Of a stretch of 64,000 nt of DNA, positions 1,974 to 45,976 are shown one piece after another. The position numbers and the translations under genes were made by a program. The notes under the pieces were generated by a model. The model ran no database searches. It saw only the letters and a list, made by a program, of their open reading frames with translations, and was not told the origin of the DNA. This stretch comes from Acidobacteriales bacterium 13_1_40CM_3_55_5 (GTDB lineage Bacteria > Acidobacteriota > Terriglobia > Terriglobales > Acidobacteriaceae), in assembly GCA_001918935.1 (NCBI GenBank), contig MNGW01000093.1, forward strand, positions 5,302 through 69,301. The letters are read 5' to 3'. Each line of letters begins with the position of its first letter. Position 1 is the stretch's first letter.

Positions 1974-2363
1974 CTAATGATCGTGCAGCCCTGAGATGCG
2001 ATCGTAACCCCGGGAAGCTCCCGTCACAGTCTCGGCCTCGGGCAGGAATTCATATCCCTGCAAGTGGACGGCAACCTCAAACCTCGTCCCACTTAAGGGC
2101 GGGACCACCCGCATGACTTTACCCCGGCATCGGACTCGCATGTTTTCGGCGAGCGTAATTTCGGACGGCATCACTAGGGTCAACTCTATGGCATCTCCTT
2201 CAGTCAAAGAAAAATCGGTACAGAAGAATGCTCCCCTCGCGCTCAAATTCTGGGTGACTCCTTGTCCTTCACCCTGTGGAATGACCGATCGGACGGCCAC
2301 GGGAAGTGAGAAGCCAAACCGCTGTGCCGCTCGCCGCTCGAGATGACCTTGGAGAGTACTCAT
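1974..2363 (-). CDS. PilZ domain protein
   Basis: RRAAQRF near the N-terminus followed by NLSARGAFF (RxxxR ... D/NxSxxG pattern). Confidence 0.7.
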   Translation of the reverse strand: MSTLQGHLERRAAQRFGFSLPVAVRSVIPQGEGQGVTQNLSARGAFFCTDFSLTEGDAIELTLVMPSEITLAENMRVRCRGKVMRVVPPLSGTRFEVAVHLQGYEFLPEAETVTGASRGYDRISGLHDH

Positions 2364-2548
2364 AGCTCTGGAAGCTGAGAAATCGTTTACGATTACTATA
2401 CTGAACGACCCTGCCCGTAACCCGCCTTCACCGCGCGTTAGGGCGCAGGCAAACTTTACCGCAGCTTGGGACAGGAAGGAAGCGCTAAATCAAAAAACGT
2501 GAAATTCCGGCACCAGCAAGCGACCAGGCAGCATCCATAAAGAGCGCA

Positions 2549-3889
2549 TTGAACGCGGCGGATTCGTCTATTTCGAACTCACTCACAAATCAATTACCCC
2601 GCGATTCCACCCCTTTGCAGCCGAAACAGGGCCGGGTGCAAGTGACCTTGCGTGCCCTGCGGCATCGTAATTTCCAGCTCTTCATCAGCGGACAACTCAT
2701 CTCCCTGATCGGCACGTGGATGCAGACTGTAGCCCAGTCATGGCTGGTCTACCGTCTGACCGGTTCATCTCTATTGCTTGGGCTAGTGGGATTTGCCAGC
2801 CAGATCCCAGTGTTCCTGGTAGCCCCCTTGGGCGGCATTATGGCGGACCGGCACAATCGCCACCGCGTGATTATCGCGACCCAGACCGCAGCCATGCTGC
2901 TGGCCGGTATTCTAGCGACCCTAACCCTGCTGGGAGTGGTGCAGGTGTGGCACGTTTTTGTGCTGGCGAGTTTGCTGGGCGTGGTGAATGCGTTTGATAT
3001 CCCCGCACGCCAGGCTTTCCTGGTGGACATGGTGGGCAAGGAAGACCTGATGAACGCCATTGCCTTGAACTCGTCCATGTTCAACGGCGCGCGGATTATC
3101 GGCCCAGCCATCGCCGGTGTGCTGGTCGCAAAGATTGGCGAAGGCTGGTGTTTCTTCGCCAATGCCGTCAGCTACATCGCAGTAATTATCGGCCTGTTCA
3201 TGATGAAATTGCCGCCTCGGATTTATCAGAGGCATTCTGCTTCCCCAATGGCGCACATCATTGAAGGCTTTCGCTTCGCCCGGGAAACCGGTCCGATCCG
3301 CGCAATATTGCTGTTGTTGGGACTCGTCAGTCTGGTCGGGATGCCTTACACCGTGCTGATGCCCGTATTCGCAGACAAGATCCTGCATGGCGGAGCCCGC
3401 GGATTGGGAATTCTGATGGGTGCCACTGGAGTAGGAGCGTTACTGGGTGCGCTGACGCTGGCTTCAAGAACCGGCGTCCGCGGACTCGGGCGTTGGGTGG
3501 CACTTTCCTGTGCCGGGTTTGGCGTCAGCTTATTTCTGTTCTCCTGGTCCCGACATTTCTGGCTCTCGGTGGCATTGTTGCTGCCGGTAGGATTCTGCAT
3601 GATGCTGGAAATGTCCTCGTCTAACACGCTGATTCAAGCCATGGTCCCCGATCACCTGCGTGGACGAGTGATGGCGATGTACTCCATGATGTTCATGGGC
3701 ATGGCGCCATTTGGAGCGCTGATCGGTGGCGCACTTGCAGATCGGCTGGGTGCGCCCGTTACGGTTTCAATCGGAGCTGTAGCTTGTATCGGCGGCGCCA
3801 TCTGGTTCGGTATGTACTTGCCAAAAATACGTGTGGAGGCGCGCCAGTTGATCGTGCAACAGACAGTGGACGGTACTGAACCTTCATGA
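2549..3889 (+). CDS. MFS transporter
   Basis: 446 aa, about 12 hydrophobic segments. N-terminal LRHRNFQLFISGQLISLIGTWMQ is typical of MFS_3/EntS-like exporters. TTG start is uncertain. Confidence 0.85.
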   Translation: MNAADSSISNSLTNQLPRDSTPLQPKQGRVQVTLRALRHRNFQLFISGQLISLIGTWMQTVAQSWLVYRLTGSSLLLGLVGFASQIPVFLVAPLGGIMADRHNRHRVIIATQTAAMLLAGILATLTLLGVVQVWHVFVLASLLGVVNAFDIPARQAFLVDMVGKEDLMNAIALNSSMFNGARIIGPAIAGVLVAKIGEGWCFFANAVSYIAVIIGLFMMKLPPRIYQRHSASPMAHIIEGFRFARETGPIRAILLLLGLVSLVGMPYTVLMPVFADKILHGGARGLGILMGATGVGALLGALTLASRTGVRGLGRWVALSCAGFGVSLFLFSWSRHFWLSVALLLPVGFCMMLEMSSSNTLIQAMVPDHLRGRVMAMYSMMFMGMAPFGALIGGALADRLGAPVTVSIGAVACIGGAIWFGMYLPKIRVEARQLIVQQTVDGTEPS

Positions 3890-3937
3890 GAGATTTGACT
3901 GGGATGTTGGATTGCGAGCTTGAGAAAGATATTAACG

Positions 3938-4954
3938 CTATTGTCCTGATCTCATCTCGCGCACGACATCGAGCAATGAGCTGTGCGCGAACGGCGCTGG
4001 CGTCAACGTCAGGATTAGCATTACCAAACCAAACAGGGCGATCCATCGCCTTGCCCCCGTCACGCCTGGCCACTCCGAAACGACAGGATGGCGCATTCCG
4101 CTGATGCGCAGCAGAATCGCCCAGATTATCCAGCCAACCCAGAAATAAATCGCAAGCGGAATCAGCGCGAGAATTGTGACCCGAGAAACAATCCTATGAG
4201 CCCGCGGAGCCAAAGCAAAAACTATGTGTCCGCCGTCGAGTTGGCCCCCGGGGAGAAGATTCAACGCCGTGGCAAACATTCCCACCCAGGCGGCAATTGC
4301 CGTGGGATGCAAATAAATCCCATGTAACGAAGTGCCACGCGCGTTCGCCAGTGGAATTGCCGCCCAGGCCAAGTGAAAAATCACTGGAAAGCCAAGCTGG
4401 ATCTCGGAAGCAACAGCGGCAGGCGCCATTATCTTCGAAAGGGGCAAGGCAAAGACCAAAACCGTAAGCGCGACTAAGAACCCCGCGATCGGCCCCGCGA
4501 TTCCGATATCAAACAACGCGGTGCGGGAGCGGATTGGAGAACGAATCCGAATGAAAGCTCCCAGTGTGCCAATCAATGTCGGCGCGGGAATGAAAAATGG
4601 CAGGGTTGCGTACACCCCGTAATAGCGGCAATAAAGATAGTGCCCCATCTCGTGCGCCAGCAGGATCAGCATCAGCGTTGAGGCGAATGGCAATCCCAGC
4701 AGCAGGCGCGATGGCTCGGCCAGCGCCCAACGCGCGGGGAAGAACGGCAGCGCGTCGTCATTCATCGAAAACGCCGGCTGGTTATTCTGAAAATTGAACT
4801 CCATGCGCGCCCCGACTACCAGCGTAGTGAACACAGTCGCCAGAAATAGCAAAATGTGCAGCCAGTAACGCCGTTTTTGGGGACGGGGCAGATAAATTTC
4901 TGACGGACGGTAATAATCAATGGTGGGAGGCAATGCGGGAGTGGGGTCAGACAT
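3938..4954 (-). CDS. site-2 protease family (peptidase M50) membrane metalloprotease
   Basis: HEMGHYL zinc motif in a polytopic membrane protein. Confidence 0.85.
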   Translation of the reverse strand: MSDPTPALPPTIDYYRPSEIYLPRPQKRRYWLHILLFLATVFTTLVVGARMEFNFQNNQPAFSMNDDALPFFPARWALAEPSRLLLGLPFASTLMLILLAHEMGHYLYCRYYGVYATLPFFIPAPTLIGTLGAFIRIRSPIRSRTALFDIGIAGPIAGFLVALTVLVFALPLSKIMAPAAVASEIQLGFPVIFHLAWAAIPLANARGTSLHGIYLHPTAIAAWVGMFATALNLLPGGQLDGGHIVFALAPRAHRIVSRVTILALIPLAIYFWVGWIIWAILLRISGMRHPVVSEWPGVTGARRWIALFGLVMLILTLTPAPFAHSSLLDVVREMRSGQ

Positions 4955-14950: not shown

Positions 14951-15049
14951 TGAGCTTAAATTCCTTTCCTAATTCCTTCTGGAGGGATAAAGCAAACTGT
15001 TATTTTTGCAGAATTTACCGGGATTGGCAAGTTGAGGCGCCTAGCGGGC

Positions 15050-15193
15050 GTGAGCGAAGCGGGAGCCCGCTGCCGAAATTCTGAGCGAAGCCGAAGGATC
15101 CCACGTTAAGCGGACACCTCCCCTTCGGTAGGTTGCTCAGGCACGCTAAGAACCGAGCCCGCTGCCGAAATCCTGAGCAAAGCGAAGGATCTT
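15050..15193. repeat. cluster of CCTGAGCGAAG...CGAAGGA box repeats
   Basis: Direct repeats at 15064-15102 and 15156-15193 (gagcccgctgccgaaatYctgagcRaagc(c)gaaggatc). A reverse copy lies at 15121-15142. The boxes are the same as those flanking the GIY-YIG gene. Confidence 0.65.
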
Positions 15194-15264
15194 AAGGATT
15201 GCGAAATGCCCTCGGACAGCCTGTGCTATGTTTTAACTTTCTCCCCTAAACCAGCGAGGCCGCT

Positions 15265-18734: not shown

Positions 18735-18873
18735 GAAATCAGTGGCCAATGGCTAGTGGTAAGCGGGCCAGCAGTCTGTAGCCACGCCAGATAGGCAGCG
18801 CCGGAGGCGCAAAACAACTTAGCCCAGCTCTTTAGGGCTGGGACATCGGAGTACGCGAGTCTTAAATCACAGC

Positions 18874-32821: not shown

Positions 32822-33005
32822 CGCTCATTAGTTTACTGCGTTGACTCGTTTTCGCGAGGGTGCGCGGCCAATTCGTCCTCTGCGCACCCAGCGCTGGAAG
32901 CGCTGGGCTAAATTGTTTCGTCCTCCGGACTGGGCCGTTGGTTGCTCGACGCGCTCGAGAAACAAGGCGCTTGGGGAATGCTAGACTGAAGACTCGGCGC
33001 ATTGA

Positions 33006-41687: not shown

Positions 41688-42086
41688 CTATCTTTTCCGT
41701 ATCGGCTGCACTGGTGGGGTTATGCTGCGTCGAACCGGAACTATGGCGCCTCGGGAAGGATCAGCGGCGACGCTGGCACGTGACAAAACTTCTTCCTGGA
41801 TATATTTCACGAAATCCTGAATCTGGCGCTGCATTTCTTCCATACGCTCGCGCATTTGTAGAATGATCGCAATGCCGGAGATATTTACTCCCAGGTCGCG
41901 AGCGAGGGAAAGAATGAATTCGAGGCGCTGAAGATCCTCGTCGGTATAAAGACGGGTGTTGCCTTCGGTGCGGGAGGGTTTGAGAAGACCTTCGCGTTCA
42001 TAAAGACGCAACGTCTGAGGATGAATGCCATACATCTCGGCCACCGCCGAGATCATGTATGCGCCTTTGGATCTTCTCTTGGTCAT
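41688..42086 (-). CDS. hspR: MerR-family heat-shock repressor HspR
   Basis: ISAVAEMYGIHPQTLRLYEREGLLKPSRT. It is the last gene after dnaJ. Confidence 0.8.
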   Translation of the reverse strand: MTKRRSKGAYMISAVAEMYGIHPQTLRLYEREGLLKPSRTEGNTRLYTDEDLQRLEFILSLARDLGVNISGIAIILQMRERMEEMQRQIQDFVKYIQEEVLSRASVAADPSRGAIVPVRRSITPPVQPIRKR

Positions 42087-42108: not shown

Positions 42109-43335
42109 TCAAACGTTCTTCCAGAGGTCCCCGCGGGGATCTTCGGGATTCAGGCGGGCAAGTTCGCGCAGAATTTCTTTGGAGCGCTCATCCCGCGGCA
42201 TGGGGACATTCACTTGTATCTCAACGATCTCATCGCCGCGTGTGCCCTCTTTGGTTGCGGATGGGACACCTTTTTCCCGCAAGCGGAGCTTCTGACCGGA
42301 TTGTGTCCCCGGCGGGATTTTAAGCAGAGTGCGACCATCGATGGTTGGCACTTCAATCTTGCTCCCCAGTGCGGCCTCTGTAGCAGTCACCGGGACCGTT
42401 AAATAAATATCGTCGCCCTCGCGGCGGAAGACGGGATGATCGCCGGTGCGGATGATCACGTACAGATCGCCAGGGGGACCTCCCCGCACACCCGCATTTC
42501 CCTTGCCCGGGATACGAATGCGCTGGCCGTCGCGAGTTCCTGGCTTGATGCGGACTTCGAGCGGTTCGGTACGCTCGACCGTTCCCTCGCCGTGACAGAC
42601 ATTGCAAGTGGTTATATTGCGGCCCGTGCCGTTACACCGCGGGCAGGTGACGTTGAACTTCATGCGTCCGCCGGTCTGCTCGATCGTTCCCTTGCCTTTG
42701 CATTCCGGACATACACCGGCCGCTTCGATATAGCCCTTACCCGAACAGTTGGAGCAGACATCGCGCCGGGTGATATTGAGGCGCATTACGCCGCCACGAA
42801 CAGCAGTCCAAAAAGGTACGTTGACTTGATATTCAAGATCGTCGCCAGGTTCAGGACCTTCCTGCGCCTGCGCGCCGCGCCCGCCAAACATGCTGGAAAA
42901 AACGTCGCGGAAGCCGCCGCTTGAATTCTTTTTTCCTCGCCCGCCGCCTTCGAACATGTCGGAGAAATCGAAGCCTCCGAAATCGAAGTGCACCCCCTGG
43001 CCTCCGGCGTTTCCACCCGGCTGGCCACCAGGGAAACCACCCGGAAAGCCACCGCCGCTACTGCCGGCGCGGGCGTAGGCATCGGCCGTTTCAGGACTGA
43101 TATTGTCGGAATAATAGCCGAGCTGGTCGTAAATCTTCCGCTTCTTGGGATCGCTCAGGACATCGTTGGCTTCGGAGATGGCCTTGAATTTCTCCTCTGC
43201 TGTCTTGTCCCCGGGATTAACATCAGGATGATATTTGCGCGCAAGTTTACGAAAGGCTTTCCGGATTTCTTCCGCCGAGGCAGACTTCTTGACTCCAAGT
43301 AAGTCGTAATAATCTTTTTTAGCAGCGGTCGCCAT
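42109..43335 (-). CDS. dnaJ: molecular chaperone DnaJ
   Basis: J domain with YHPDVNP, a G/F region, and four CxxCxGxG zinc repeats. Confidence 0.97.
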
Positions 43336-43354
43336 GAGTTGCCAAACTTTATTC

Positions 43355-43416
43355 TGTCATCCTGAGCGAAGTTGTCGTTCGCGACGGCGAACGACAACGC
43401 AGCCGAAGGACCCCAT
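43355..43416. repeat. left terminal inverted repeat with internal 12-bp hairpin
   Basis: TGTCATCCTGAGCG..[GTTGTCGTTCGC GACG GCGAACGACAAC]..GCCGAAGGACCCCAT. Confidence 0.8.
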
Positions 43417-43454
43417 GCCTGTCAACTCGGGCAAGAACGCTTCAAGGCGTTCTC

Positions 43455-43784
43455 TCATCGGTCCTTGATCGGCTCTGCTGCAAACGCCATCGGCGCTCCC
43501 CATTTCTCTGCGAGGTCCTGCCCTGTGGGGTTGATCGATGTAATCACAGCGATCTTCTTCGCCCGAATCCAGCCTTTCAATTGTTTCTCGCGATCAATTG
43601 CGTTTTGAACGTCGTCAAAGCTTTCGTAATACACCAAGCGATCGCAATGATATTTAAGGGCGAATCCTTCGAACTCCCTGCTTTTGTGTTCTGCTATGCG
43701 TCGGTCGATGTTATTGGTCATGCCGATGTAGAGTGTGCCGGTGAGGCTTCCGACAATGTAAACCCAATACTTTTTCGGGTTCAT
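43455..43784 (-). CDS. GIY-YIG nuclease family protein
   Basis: WVYIVGSLTGTLYIGMTNNIDRRIAEHK ... EKQLKGW. Confidence 0.9.
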   Translation of the reverse strand: MNPKKYWVYIVGSLTGTLYIGMTNNIDRRIAEHKSREFEGFALKYHCDRLVYYESFDDVQNAIDREKQLKGWIRAKKIAVITSINPTGQDLAEKWGAPMAFAAEPIKDR

Positions 43785-43872
43785 ATCAATTCGTGTCGTG
43801 GTCGGTAAGAAGCCTGCAGCGTTTGGGGCATCTTGGGAATTCCTTCTTGCGCTTCTGGTGGCGCACGCGGGT

Positions 43873-43936
43873 ATGGGGGTCCTTCGACTTCGTAGCTGCT
43901 TCGCTTGGCGAAGCAGCTACTCCGCTCAGGATGACA
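43873..43936. repeat. right terminal inverted repeat with internal 13-bp hairpin
   Basis: Its reverse complement reads TGTCATCCTGAGCG..[GTAGCTGCTTCGC CAA GCGAAGCAGCTAC]..GTCGAAGGACCCCCAT. Confidence 0.8.
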
Positions 43937-43945
43937 AGAGTTTTT

Positions 43946-45871
43946 TTACTTCTTGTCTTCCACGTCCACGTACTCCGCGTCGATTACTCCTTCGTCTTTC
44001 TTTTGCGCTTCGCCGTTGCTTCCTGGAGTCGGACCTGCCGTCGGTCCTGCTCCGGGCGCGCCTTGGGGTTGAGCTGCTTTGTACATCTGTTCAGCCAGCT
44101 TGTGCGACGCTTGAGTCAAACGCTCACGGGCTTGGTCCATGCTGCTCTTGTCATTTGATTCCAGGGCTTTCTTGGCGTCGGCTATTGCGTTCTCGACATC
44201 GCCGCGCTCGGAACCCGAGATCTTGTCGCCCTGTTCACGAAGCATCTTCTCGACGCTGTAAACCAAGGTGTCGAGCTGATTGCGCGACTCGATCTCTTCG
44301 CGTTTGGCCTTATCCTCGGCGGAGTGAGCGTCGGCTTCTTTGGCCATGCGCTCGACTTCTTCTTTGCTCAGACCCGAAGAAGACGTGATCGTGATCTTCT
44401 GGTCCTTGCCGGTGGCATTGTCTTTCGCGGTCACGTTCAGGATGCCGTTTGCATCGATGTCAAACGTAACTTCGATCTGCGGCACTCCACGAGGAGCCGG
44501 CGGAATACCGGTCAAGTGGAATTTGCCGAGTGTACGATTGTCTCGAGCCAGCGGACGCTCGCCTTGCAACACATGGACTTCCACTGAAGTCTGACTATCC
44601 GCCGCGGTGGAGAAAGTCTCCGTCTTGCGGGTAGGGATGGTCGTGTTGCGCGGGATCATCGGCGTGGCAACGCCTCCCAGAGTTTCGATTGAGAGCGTGA
44701 GCGGAGTGACGTCGAGGAGAAGAAGATCCTTTACCTCGCCTCCCAGCACGCCACCTTGAATCGCCGCACCAATCGCGACTACTTCGTCGGGATTGACTCC
44801 ACGGTGCGGCTCCTTGCCAAACAACTCCTTCACCAGAGCCTGAATGCGAGGCATACGGGTCTGCCCGCCGACCAGGACGACTTCATTAATCTTGCTCGCG
44901 TCCACTCCCGCGTCCTTCATACATTGCTTGCATGGACCAACAGAACGTTGGATGAGGTCTTCAACCATCGACTCCAGCTTGGCCCGGGTCATCTTCTTGA
45001 CCAAATGCTTGGGACCATTGGCATCGGCGGTGATAAAAGGCAGGTTGATCTCGGTCTCCATGGTGGTGGAGAGTTCGATCTTGGCGCGCTCGGCCGCGTC
45101 ACGCAGACGCTGCAGCGCCATTTCATTGCCTTTGCCGCGAAGGTCGAGGCCTTCGTCCTTTTTGAACTCGTCGATTAGCCAATCCACGATGCGCTGATCG
45201 AGGTTGTCGCCGCCCAAATGGGTGTCGCCGTTGGTGGCCTTGACTTCGATGACGCCTTCGCCCACTTCGAGGATCGAGATATCGAAGGTACCGCCGCCGA
45301 AGTCGTAGACCGCAATGGTTTCGTCTTTCTTTTTGTCCAGACCGTAAGCCAGCGCGGCCGCAGTCGGCTCGTTAATGATGCGCTTCACATCCAGCCCGGC
45401 GATTTTGCCTGCGTCCTTGGTGGCCTGACGCTGCGCGTCGTTGAAATATGCCGGAACGGTGATAACGGCTTCGGATACCTTCTCGCCGAGGTAGTCTTCC
45501 GCAGCTTTCTTCAGTTTCTGAAGAATCATTGCGGAGACCTGAGGCGGGGTGTACTCCTTGCCCTGGGCAACGATGGCCACGTTGTCGCCTGACTTCACGA
45601 CCTTGAAGGGCACCATCTTCATTTCTTCGCTGACTTCGGCGTAGCGCCGCCCCATAAAACGCTTAATCGAGAAAATCGTGTTTTCTGGATTGGTGATGGC
45701 TTGACGCTTGGCCACCTGTCCAACAAGGCGTTCTCCGGTCTTGGTAAAACCGACCACGGAAGGGGTCGTCCGACCACCCTCCTCGTTGGGAATGACCTTG
45801 GGTTCTCCACCCTCCATGACCGCTACCACAGAGTTGGTCGTGCCCAAGTCAATTCCTATGATCTTTGCCAT
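43946..45871 (-). CDS. dnaK: molecular chaperone DnaK
   Basis: [10 protein letters not shown] and DLGGGTFD, over the full 641-aa length. Confidence 0.98.
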
Positions 45872-45946: not shown

Positions 45947-45976
45947 ATGATAGAACTTGAGTGACTTTGTGTCAAC
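45947..45976 (-). promoter_or_regulatory. dnaK promoter (TTGACA-N17-TATCAT) overlapping a HAIR-like HspR operator
   Basis: The minus strand reads aaaagTTGACAcaaagtcACTCAAGttcTATCATg, i.e. GTTGACA-N7-ACTCAAG against the consensus CTTGAGT-N7-ACTCAAG. Confidence 0.5.

Follow-up and report, generated by a model that had tools for sequence, protein, structure and literature searches.

Ssn proteins and the hairpin repeats that accompany their genes were described by Chenal et al. (2025, Nat Commun 16:2388; PMC11893778), with SsnA of Neisseria meningitidis as the type member. They are single-domain GIY-YIG proteins of ~94 amino acids (aa; CDD cd10448), and the repeats that flank their genes are called NTS in Neisseria (CGTCATTCCCGCGMAVGCGGGAATCYRG) and Ssn-related motif (SRM) more generally. 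N. meningitidis SsnA binds its repeat as single-stranded DNA (ssDNA) only, and neither double-stranded DNA (dsDNA) nor RNA nor the reverse strand is bound. Cleavage is ssDNA- and strand-specific as well and takes place a few nucleotides (nt) upstream of the repeat, 5' of the GTC leader. Cutting depends most on the three bases preceding the palindrome, and binding most on the C that follows it. The repeat tolerates loss of its loop, or replacement of the loop by extensions such as longer stems, and each of the substitutions Y6A, Y17A and E64A abolishes cleavage. SsnA lowers transformation by NTS-bearing DNA, and its discoverers likened the arrangement NTS-ssnA-NTS to an insertion sequence and to REP/RAYT (repetitive extragenic palindromic sequences and REP-associated tyrosine transposases; all PMC11893778). 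Here we analysed a stretch of 64,000 nt from the genome of Acidobacteriales bacterium 13_1_40CM_3_55_5 (contig MNGW01000093.1, positions 5,302 to 69,301, hereafter the window), in which a GIY-YIG nuclease gene bracketed by two inverted hairpin repeats lies between dnaK and dnaJ.

Our best explanation, to which we assign a probability of roughly 0.8, is that this gene encodes an Ssn-family ssDNA endonuclease, that the flanking repeats are its cognate SRMs, and that the cassette is mobile or often lost. As a class, such systems are already published (Ssn/SRM). The novelty of the present case is modest and lies in the acidobacterial host, in a repeat whose loop position is taken by a long variable hairpin, and in the repeated residence of such cassettes in a dnaK-dnaJ-hspR operon. 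The phylum of the host, Acidobacteriota (Terriglobia), is absent from the main text of PMC11893778, and the literature that was searched contains no mention of the window repeat, of such a system in Acidobacteria, or of the link to dnaK.

The window gene encodes a homologue of SsnA

The gene (43455-43784, minus strand) had been recognized in a first-pass annotation of the window, made by reading the sequence without database searches, as a 109-aa GIY-YIG open reading frame (ORF) between dnaK and dnaJ on the operon strand. ORF prediction and Pfam agree with this assignment. Pfam placed a GIY-YIG domain (PF01541) on residues 5-77 (E 3.9e-15) and matched no second domain. In a BLASTP comparison, the protein was 44% identical over 85 residues (E 4e-22) to the 94-aa SsnA orthologue of Neisseria gonorrhoeae, and a tblastn search of a 7.3-Gb database matched the same gonococcal orthologue at E 1e-12. 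This orthologue (L091, 1489-1773; L-numbers denote loci) possesses Y6, Y17 and E64 and has NTS copies all round. It could be retrieved because two N. gonorrhoeae records of ~2.17 Mb each (NZ_CP119140.1 and NZ_CP119142.1), evidently chromosomes, are labelled as plasmids in the plasmid collection. Y9, Y19 and E66 of the window protein align with Y6, Y17 and E64 of SsnA, the residues mutated by Chenal et al. Among 41 acidobacterial homologues, Y9 and E66 were invariant and Y19 was at least 90% conserved. In addition, the acidobacterial proteins share a conserved 18-residue C-terminal tail (WGAxMAFAGESIK).

The AlphaFold2 model of the protein displays the beta-beta-alpha-beta-alpha-alpha GIY-YIG fold as one compact domain, followed by a tail of low confidence (residues 86-109, pLDDT below 50). 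Foldseek analysis of this model returned UPF0213 (1zg2) and Slx1 as top hits (E 2.8e-4, TM 0.51-0.58), and a profile search against solved structures found 1zg2 at E 9.6e-8. UPF0213/YhbQ-type proteins and Slx1 (PDB 1zg2, 1ywl, 4xlg) are hence the closest solved folds, but with 22-28% identity they are far more distant from the window protein than SsnA (44%). We know of no association of UPF0213/YhbQ-type or Slx1 proteins with flanking repeats, and Slx1 requires Slx4 and acts on branched DNA. No NCBIfam model matched the window protein. By search, the family comprised 11,109 representatives at E <= 1e-3 and 3,265 at E <= 1e-10.

Two inverted hairpin repeats flank the gene

The gene is preceded by an SRM-type repeat at 43873-43936 (minus strand, with the forward strand of the repeat on the coding strand) and followed by an inverted copy at 43355-43416 (plus strand, with the forward strand on plus). 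Two structured repeats in inverted orientation had been proposed here, and the shared 13-mer, the stems and a covariance model all agree. The 13-mer GTCATCCTGAGCG occurs in the window without mismatch at 43356-43368 (+) and 43923-43935 (-) only. The inner stems pair perfectly, over 12 base pairs (bp) in the downstream copy (43371-43382 with 43387-43398) and over 13 bp in the upstream copy (43892-43904 with 43908-43920), and the outer arms form an 18-nt inverted repeat with 94% complementarity. The upstream copy is built from a TGTCA leader, a short outer stem (P1, TCCT/AGGA), a GAGCG..AGTCGA internal loop, the 13-bp variable hairpin and a CCCC tail; the downstream copy comprises the same boxes with a 12-bp hairpin of different sequence. 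Covariance model (CM) R1, which was derived from related copies, detected both repeats in the window (43873-43938, 84.1 bits, E 5.5e-23, and 43353-43417, 65.2 bits, E 2.7e-17) and gave one further weak match at 15072-15105. The distances of the repeats to the neighbouring genes, 9 nt from the dnaK stop and 19 nt from the dnaJ start codon, were correct in the first-pass annotation. The sequences CTTTATTC and AGAGTTTT that flank the cassette on its outside contain no target-site duplication.

Folded as RNA on the operon strand, the two repeats reached -31.6 and -30.3 kcal/mol (z -3.9 and -2.4 versus shuffled controls), and DNA folding of each window copy gave z values of -3.5 to -5.6 versus shuffled controls. 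No Rfam family covered the repeats, neither at gathering thresholds in the whole window nor at E up to 10 within 43250-44050. A hammerhead-like or other ribozyme, or a K-turn, was considered on account of a CUGA..GAA motif and rejected, as the core misfits by inspection and no Rfam ribozyme family matched.

Searching 621 kb with CM R1 resulted in 278 matches, which correspond to 145 distinct copies. Their lengths range from a 33-nt short form (TGTCATCCTGAGCGAAGCGAAGGACCCC) up to forms in which a hairpin of ~25 bp is inserted mid-repeat. The GTCA leader, the loop strands GAGCG.A and G.AGTCGA, and the C after the stem are essentially invariant among the 145 copies, and the inner hairpin is free to vary. 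Compensatory variation that preserves a hairpin had been suggested from the two window copies alone; this also holds for 39 ungapped 66-nt copies, where 14 of the 19 proposed pairs change on both sides. Paired cells amounted to 94.5% in these copies, versus 76.7% in shuffles and 32-43% with slid partners. The 4-bp outer stem P1 covaries as well, from TCCT/AGGA to CCCT/AGGG, TGCT/AGCA, TCTT/AAGA and TTCT/AGAA. The tip of the hairpin is often GCGAAGC, a very stable DNA mini-hairpin. Beside P1, the loop strands bring 5'-GA-3' opposite 5'-GA-3', and judging by inspection sheared G·A pairs could form at this position. When the stems were read on the GTCA strand, G·T combinations outnumbered A·C combinations (76 versus 32, p 2.8e-5). 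This bias favours the forward (GTCA) strand as the one that folds when single-stranded.

The repeat accompanies ssn homologues in relatives

Relatives were scanned at one genome per species, and at least 591 stretches encode homologues of the window protein. Counts out of 80 given below refer to the best 80 of these loci, nearly all of which belong to Terriglobia/Acidobacteriota. Box 1 of the repeat, counted at up to one mismatch in 14, reached a density of 4.2 per kb within the 320 nt upstream of the gene and 3.0 per kb downstream of it, versus 0.08 per kb in the distal flanks (more than 700 nt away). The box is thus enriched ~40- to 50-fold beside the gene. A forward copy was present upstream in 63 of the 80 loci and an inverted copy downstream in 51; both were found in 41 loci, and at least one of them in 75. 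That is, the association of the boxes with further GIY-YIG copies, on which the first-pass interpretation depended, is found at 75/80 homologous loci. The commonest architecture, > [ssn] < (19/80), is the layout of the window.

In relatives, the repeat also forms inverted doublets without the gene as well as tandem arrays (L025, L061, L011, L014, L045 and L075). Solo repeats elsewhere had been mentioned in the first-pass annotation; in the window, no further copy of canonical form was found and a degenerate related pair at ~15040-15195 is the only candidate, but solo copies, doublets and arrays exist in relatives. Hairpins with a TGTCAT leader, very like the acidobacterial short form, flank homologues in a cyanobacterium, a Bacteroidota species and Neisseria. 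Ten soil contigs, some of them from metagenome-assembled genomes of Acidobacteria, encode an identical protein at this position between dnaK and dnaJ. The sequence of these ten contigs is almost invariant, and their variation is too low to be informative on the population level.

Long tandem repeat arrays adjoin ssn homologues in L045 (~2270-3975), L014 (3754-5220), L075 (3638-4614) and L085 (4361-5058). The L045 array consists of at least 11 units with a period of 161 nt, and in the L014 array forward and inverted copies alternate ~340 nt apart. In soil genomes, the repeats seed spurious ORFs.

The dnaK-dnaJ spacer differs among close relatives

The dnaK-ssn-dnaJ layout was found in ten other species, and ~10 of the 80 homologous loci are linked to dnaK. 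As a sample that is unbiased with respect to ssn, we collected relatives by means of their DnaJ. Six of them have dnaK beside dnaJ (L092, L093, L094, L099, L100 and L102), and in none of the six was the ssn gene present. The spacers of L092 and L093 contain repeats without the gene, and only a decayed box-1 remnant was found in the spacer of L102. L099 shares the synteny of the window, with DnaK 98.8% and DnaJ 96% identical, and its 295-nt spacer contains neither the ssn gene nor the repeat. Nucleotide homology between L099 and the window ends at the dnaK stop and restarts at the dnaJ ATG. As the whole spacer differs, no clean empty-site junction can be defined. Directly after dnaK, L099 has an unrelated G+C-rich hairpin.

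The L099 spacer harbours a small ORF (MQFEVNGQVYFLSF..., 2812-2988). Related ORFs of ~58-73 aa with the pattern MQFxVNGxxYFLxF...RIPVYVDAP, for which Pfam gave no match, lie between dnaK and dnaJ in many Terriglobales. The small ORF was also detected in L092 (3245-3466), L093, L094 and nine of the ten dnaK-linked ssn loci, where it precedes ssn in eight cases (for example L012, 3548-3679) and follows it in L024 (4586-4738). This ORF seems to occupy the dnaK-dnaJ spacer natively in this clade. Its absence from the window indicates that the lineage of the window has lost it. The first-pass annotation had compared the slot of the cassette with that of grpE in Streptomyces-type operons; since grpE was not found in the window (see below) and the small ORF seems to be native to the slot in this clade, that comparison is not relevant. 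In a neighbour-joining tree, which is based on ~100 residues and weakly resolved, the dnaK-linked ssn copies were not monophyletic. Taken together, these patterns indicate that the cassette has been gained, lost or rearranged repeatedly in the dnaK-dnaJ spacer.

The cassette resides in a putative heat-shock operon

All genes of the operon are encoded on the minus strand, in the order dnaK (43946-45871; Pfam HSP70, E 3e-264), the ssn-like gene, dnaJ (42109-43335; Pfam DnaJ, DnaJ_C and DnaJ_CXXCXGXG) and a MerR-family, HspR-like regulator gene as the last one (41688-42086; Pfam MerR_1, E 1.8e-20). Thus, dnaK is the upstream and dnaJ the downstream neighbour of the cassette. A sigma-70-like promoter (TTGACA-17-TATCAT, 11/12 matches) is located 5' of dnaK at 45947-45976 (minus strand). 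It overlaps a remnant of an inverted repeat that resembles the HspR-associated inverted repeat (HAIR), with one perfect CTTGAGT half and a diverged other half (3 mismatches). Searching for HAIR operators returned only a site with three mismatches, and the number of such matches is at chance level; what makes this site suggestive is its location at the dnaK promoter alone. No promoter-like or terminator-like site was detected when the dnaK-dnaJ spacer was scanned. Because the spacer lacks such sites and a strong sigma-70-like promoter precedes dnaK, co-transcription of the ssn-like gene with the heat-shock operon is plausible. A search of the 64-kb window with the E. coli GrpE sequence did not find grpE.

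Comparison with described systems and rival explanations

The locus resembles the Ssn systems in its ~100-aa single-domain GIY-YIG protein with conserved catalytic Tyr, Tyr and Glu, in the oriented hairpin repeats on both sides of the gene, which share a GTCAT leader and the C behind the stem, and in the existence of gene-less repeats and an insertion sequence-like repeat-gene-repeat layout. In contrast to the Neisseria system, invariant internal loops rich in purines break up the acidobacterial stem, and a hairpin of free sequence (0 to ~25 bp) is found where the Neisseria repeat has a 4-nt loop. Such long variable hairpins in the loop position fit the published dispensability of the loop. 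The window protein further differs by its conserved C-terminal tail, and the cassette by its position inside a heat-shock operon and by the few copies of the repeat in 64 kb.

As in REP/REPIN-RAYT systems, a single nuclease gene lies between hairpin repeats in inverted orientation, inverted doublets and clusters occur without the gene, the recognized form is a folded single strand that carries a short conserved leader, and persistence is mostly in one lineage. However, the window protein is a GIY-YIG protein according to Pfam, profile search and fold, not an HUH/Y1 (IS200/IS605-like) tyrosine transposase, and the window repeat is unrelated in sequence. The cassette works in the manner of REP/RAYT, yet it is no member of that class, since its protein is no HUH transposase. 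Compared with insertion sequences and miniature inverted-repeat transposable elements, the cassette has inverted terminal repeats, but its flanks are free of duplications and no junction is readable in L099. The analogy to REP/RAYT and the idea of a nuclease that recognizes hairpins had both been put forward in the first-pass annotation, and they match the experiments on the homologous Ssn family (PMC11893778). DNA and RNA hairpins had been considered as substrates; hairpin recognition is retained, but RNA is not, since Ssn enzymes recognize the hairpin as ssDNA (PMC11893778). The overall interpretation given at that time, a selfish or domesticated hairpin-recognizing nuclease element within a heat-shock transcript, is supported, because the repeats accompany further GIY-YIG copies, pairing of the stems is kept across copies, and relatives differ in gene and spacer, with L099 lacking both gene and repeats at 98.8% DnaK identity. 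The place on a heat-shock transcript is presumed from the spacer's lack of promoter-like and terminator-like sites. The class of system, however, was already described.

Several points weigh against our explanation. The proposed Ssn membership is based on homology to SsnA, and so is the presumed activity of the window protein and its acidobacterial homologues. The SRM string HGTCWYN(0-2)YYVSBRHN(0-5)WNVSBRGN(0-2)RNCYNB, as we implemented it, matches the canonical Neisseria NTS, but neither of the window copies and none of the short acidobacterial forms. This string is a search device of its authors and not a definition of the family, and the window repeats do have the leader, the stem and the C behind it. 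Just two canonical copies occur in 64 kb, so a large repeat population in the source genome would be conjectural. Folding energies of DNA and RNA, compared for both strands, do not tell which strand is functional, and the alignment behind the strand bias had been fitted to the model, so that it leans slightly towards G·U pairs. The tree of ssn copies carries the limits given above, and expression of the ssn-like gene from the operon is something we infer.

Could the repeats act mainly as RNA stem-loops, affecting upstream mRNA stability or the dnaK:dnaJ ratio, with the nuclease gene being incidental? REP elements in some operons stabilize upstream mRNA or set gene ratios, and such a role would agree with the strong RNA folding of both repeats on the operon strand, with the spacer's lack of promoter-like and terminator-like sites, and with the unrelated G+C-rich hairpin right after dnaK in L099. 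However, the repeat accompanies ssn homologues at many unrelated loci, only ~10/80 of which are linked to dnaK. The downstream copy lies antisense within the transcript, the bases of leader and loop show an invariance far beyond the needs of a stability hairpin, no Rfam family matches the repeats, and SsnA does not bind RNA (PMC11893778). We therefore consider this explanation quite improbable, and an RNA-level effect of the repeats would be secondary and co-opted at best.

A second line of thought takes the cassette as an autonomous transposon, in which the GIY-YIG protein serves as the transposase that moves the unit and its gene-less doublets in the manner of IS200/IS605 or REPIN/RAYT, and not as a restriction-like host nuclease. 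The inverted terminal repeats with their conserved leader facing outward, the gene-less doublets and tandem arrays (L025, L061, L011, L014, L045, L075), the patchy presence in close relatives and the varying position of the cassette within one spacer would all fit. Yet we know of no strand-transfer or transposition chemistry for GIY-YIG enzymes, and neither a target-site duplication nor a clean empty-site junction was found, the L099 spacer being different as a whole. Chenal et al. raised the same hypothesis, but cleavage of incoming ssDNA is the sole function demonstrated for the Ssn family (PMC11893778). Transposition by the GIY-YIG protein itself is thus very unlikely, although this idea overlaps with our best explanation, a mobile or often lost Ssn cassette, rather than opposing it. 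We regard as extremely improbable that the protein is a free-standing homing endonuclease of the I-TevI/Seg type, which would spread through repair after cutting, as dsDNA, those dnaK-dnaJ alleles that lack the cassette. A GIY-YIG domain is present and the occupancy of one locus varies among close relatives, but the 109 aa comprise one domain plus a low-confidence tail and no DNA-binding domain. Moreover, the homologues reside at many chromosomal loci with the same flanking repeat instead of being tied to a single target gene, and SsnA, the nearest characterized relative, does not cut dsDNA (PMC11893778).

Proposed mechanism and implications

For the Ssn/SRM cassette that we favour, a working model can be outlined, in which cleavage specificity, expression and biological role are inferred. 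Each repeat is an oriented hairpin and consists of the invariant GTCA leader, the covarying 4-bp stem P1, the invariant purine-rich loop (GAGCG.A / G.AGTCGA), a hairpin P2 of free sequence in the loop position and a C-rich tail. Whenever the DNA becomes single-stranded, during replication or repair or as incoming DNA, the GTCA strand would fold. By homology with N. meningitidis SsnA, the nuclease may then bind the base of the hairpin and the following C and place a nick a few nt 5' of the leader. The predicted nick sites would fall on opposite strands at the outer edges of the cassette, in the 9-nt gap by dnaK and in the 19-nt gap by dnaJ. The SRM-ssn-SRM cassette shows the behaviour of a mobile or frequently lost unit, has replaced the native content of the dnaK-dnaJ spacer in the window lineage, and is probably transcribed along with the operon. 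Its role in Acidobacteria could be the restriction of incoming ssDNA, the spread or maintenance of the repeats, or both.

In a bolder version, the cassette would be a mobile element that is still active and driven by its GIY-YIG protein, with the dnaK-dnaJ spacer of Terriglobia as a recurrent target, and HspR-controlled transcription would result in stress-switched nicking of ssDNA, together with mobilization of repeats or restriction of incoming DNA. We think this unlikely; if true, it would be the first evidence for movement of an Ssn cassette and the first link of such a cassette to a stress regulon.

For the Ssn/SRM systems, the locus adds a well-documented acidobacterial example and does not overturn current understanding. 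It suggests that the recognized part of the repeat is the leader and the base of the hairpin, and the natural long hairpins in the loop position mirror the published loop-replacement experiments. Gain and loss between close relatives bear on the hypothesis of Chenal et al. that such cassettes are or were mobile. In addition, the repeat model can be used for annotating repeats in soil genomes and could help to choose new pairs of enzyme and site as ssDNA tools.

Further repeats and loci

A second, related repeat family was observed in an intergenic region of the window at 15040-15195 (+), where a hairpin module (TAGCGGGCGTGAGCGAAGCGGGAGCCCGC) is followed by an SRM-like core (GAAATTCTGAGCGAAGCCGAAGGATCCC). 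The leader of this core is GAAAT instead of GTCAT, and a second partial copy lies ~90 nt further on, so that the two form a degenerate pair. In L092 and L093, the dnaK-dnaJ spacer begins with the same composite of hairpin module and core, there with a GTCAT leader, and variants with the GAAAT leader are also present in L035 and L025.

Two Acido-Lenti-1 RNA motifs (RF01687) were identified in the window at 18797-18842 (-) and 32887-32931 (+), with 42.4 and 37.1 bits at a gathering score of 37. Acido-Lenti-1 was considered as the identity of the repeats and dismissed, the sequence of both motifs being unrelated to them. On plasmid p1 of Planktothrix agardhii (L096), a homologue with 51.7% identity (698-982) is located between an MmeI-type restriction-modification gene and the DISARM gene drmA. 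It thus sits within a defence island and is surrounded by many TGTCATTCTGAG and TGTCATCCTGAATG repeats.

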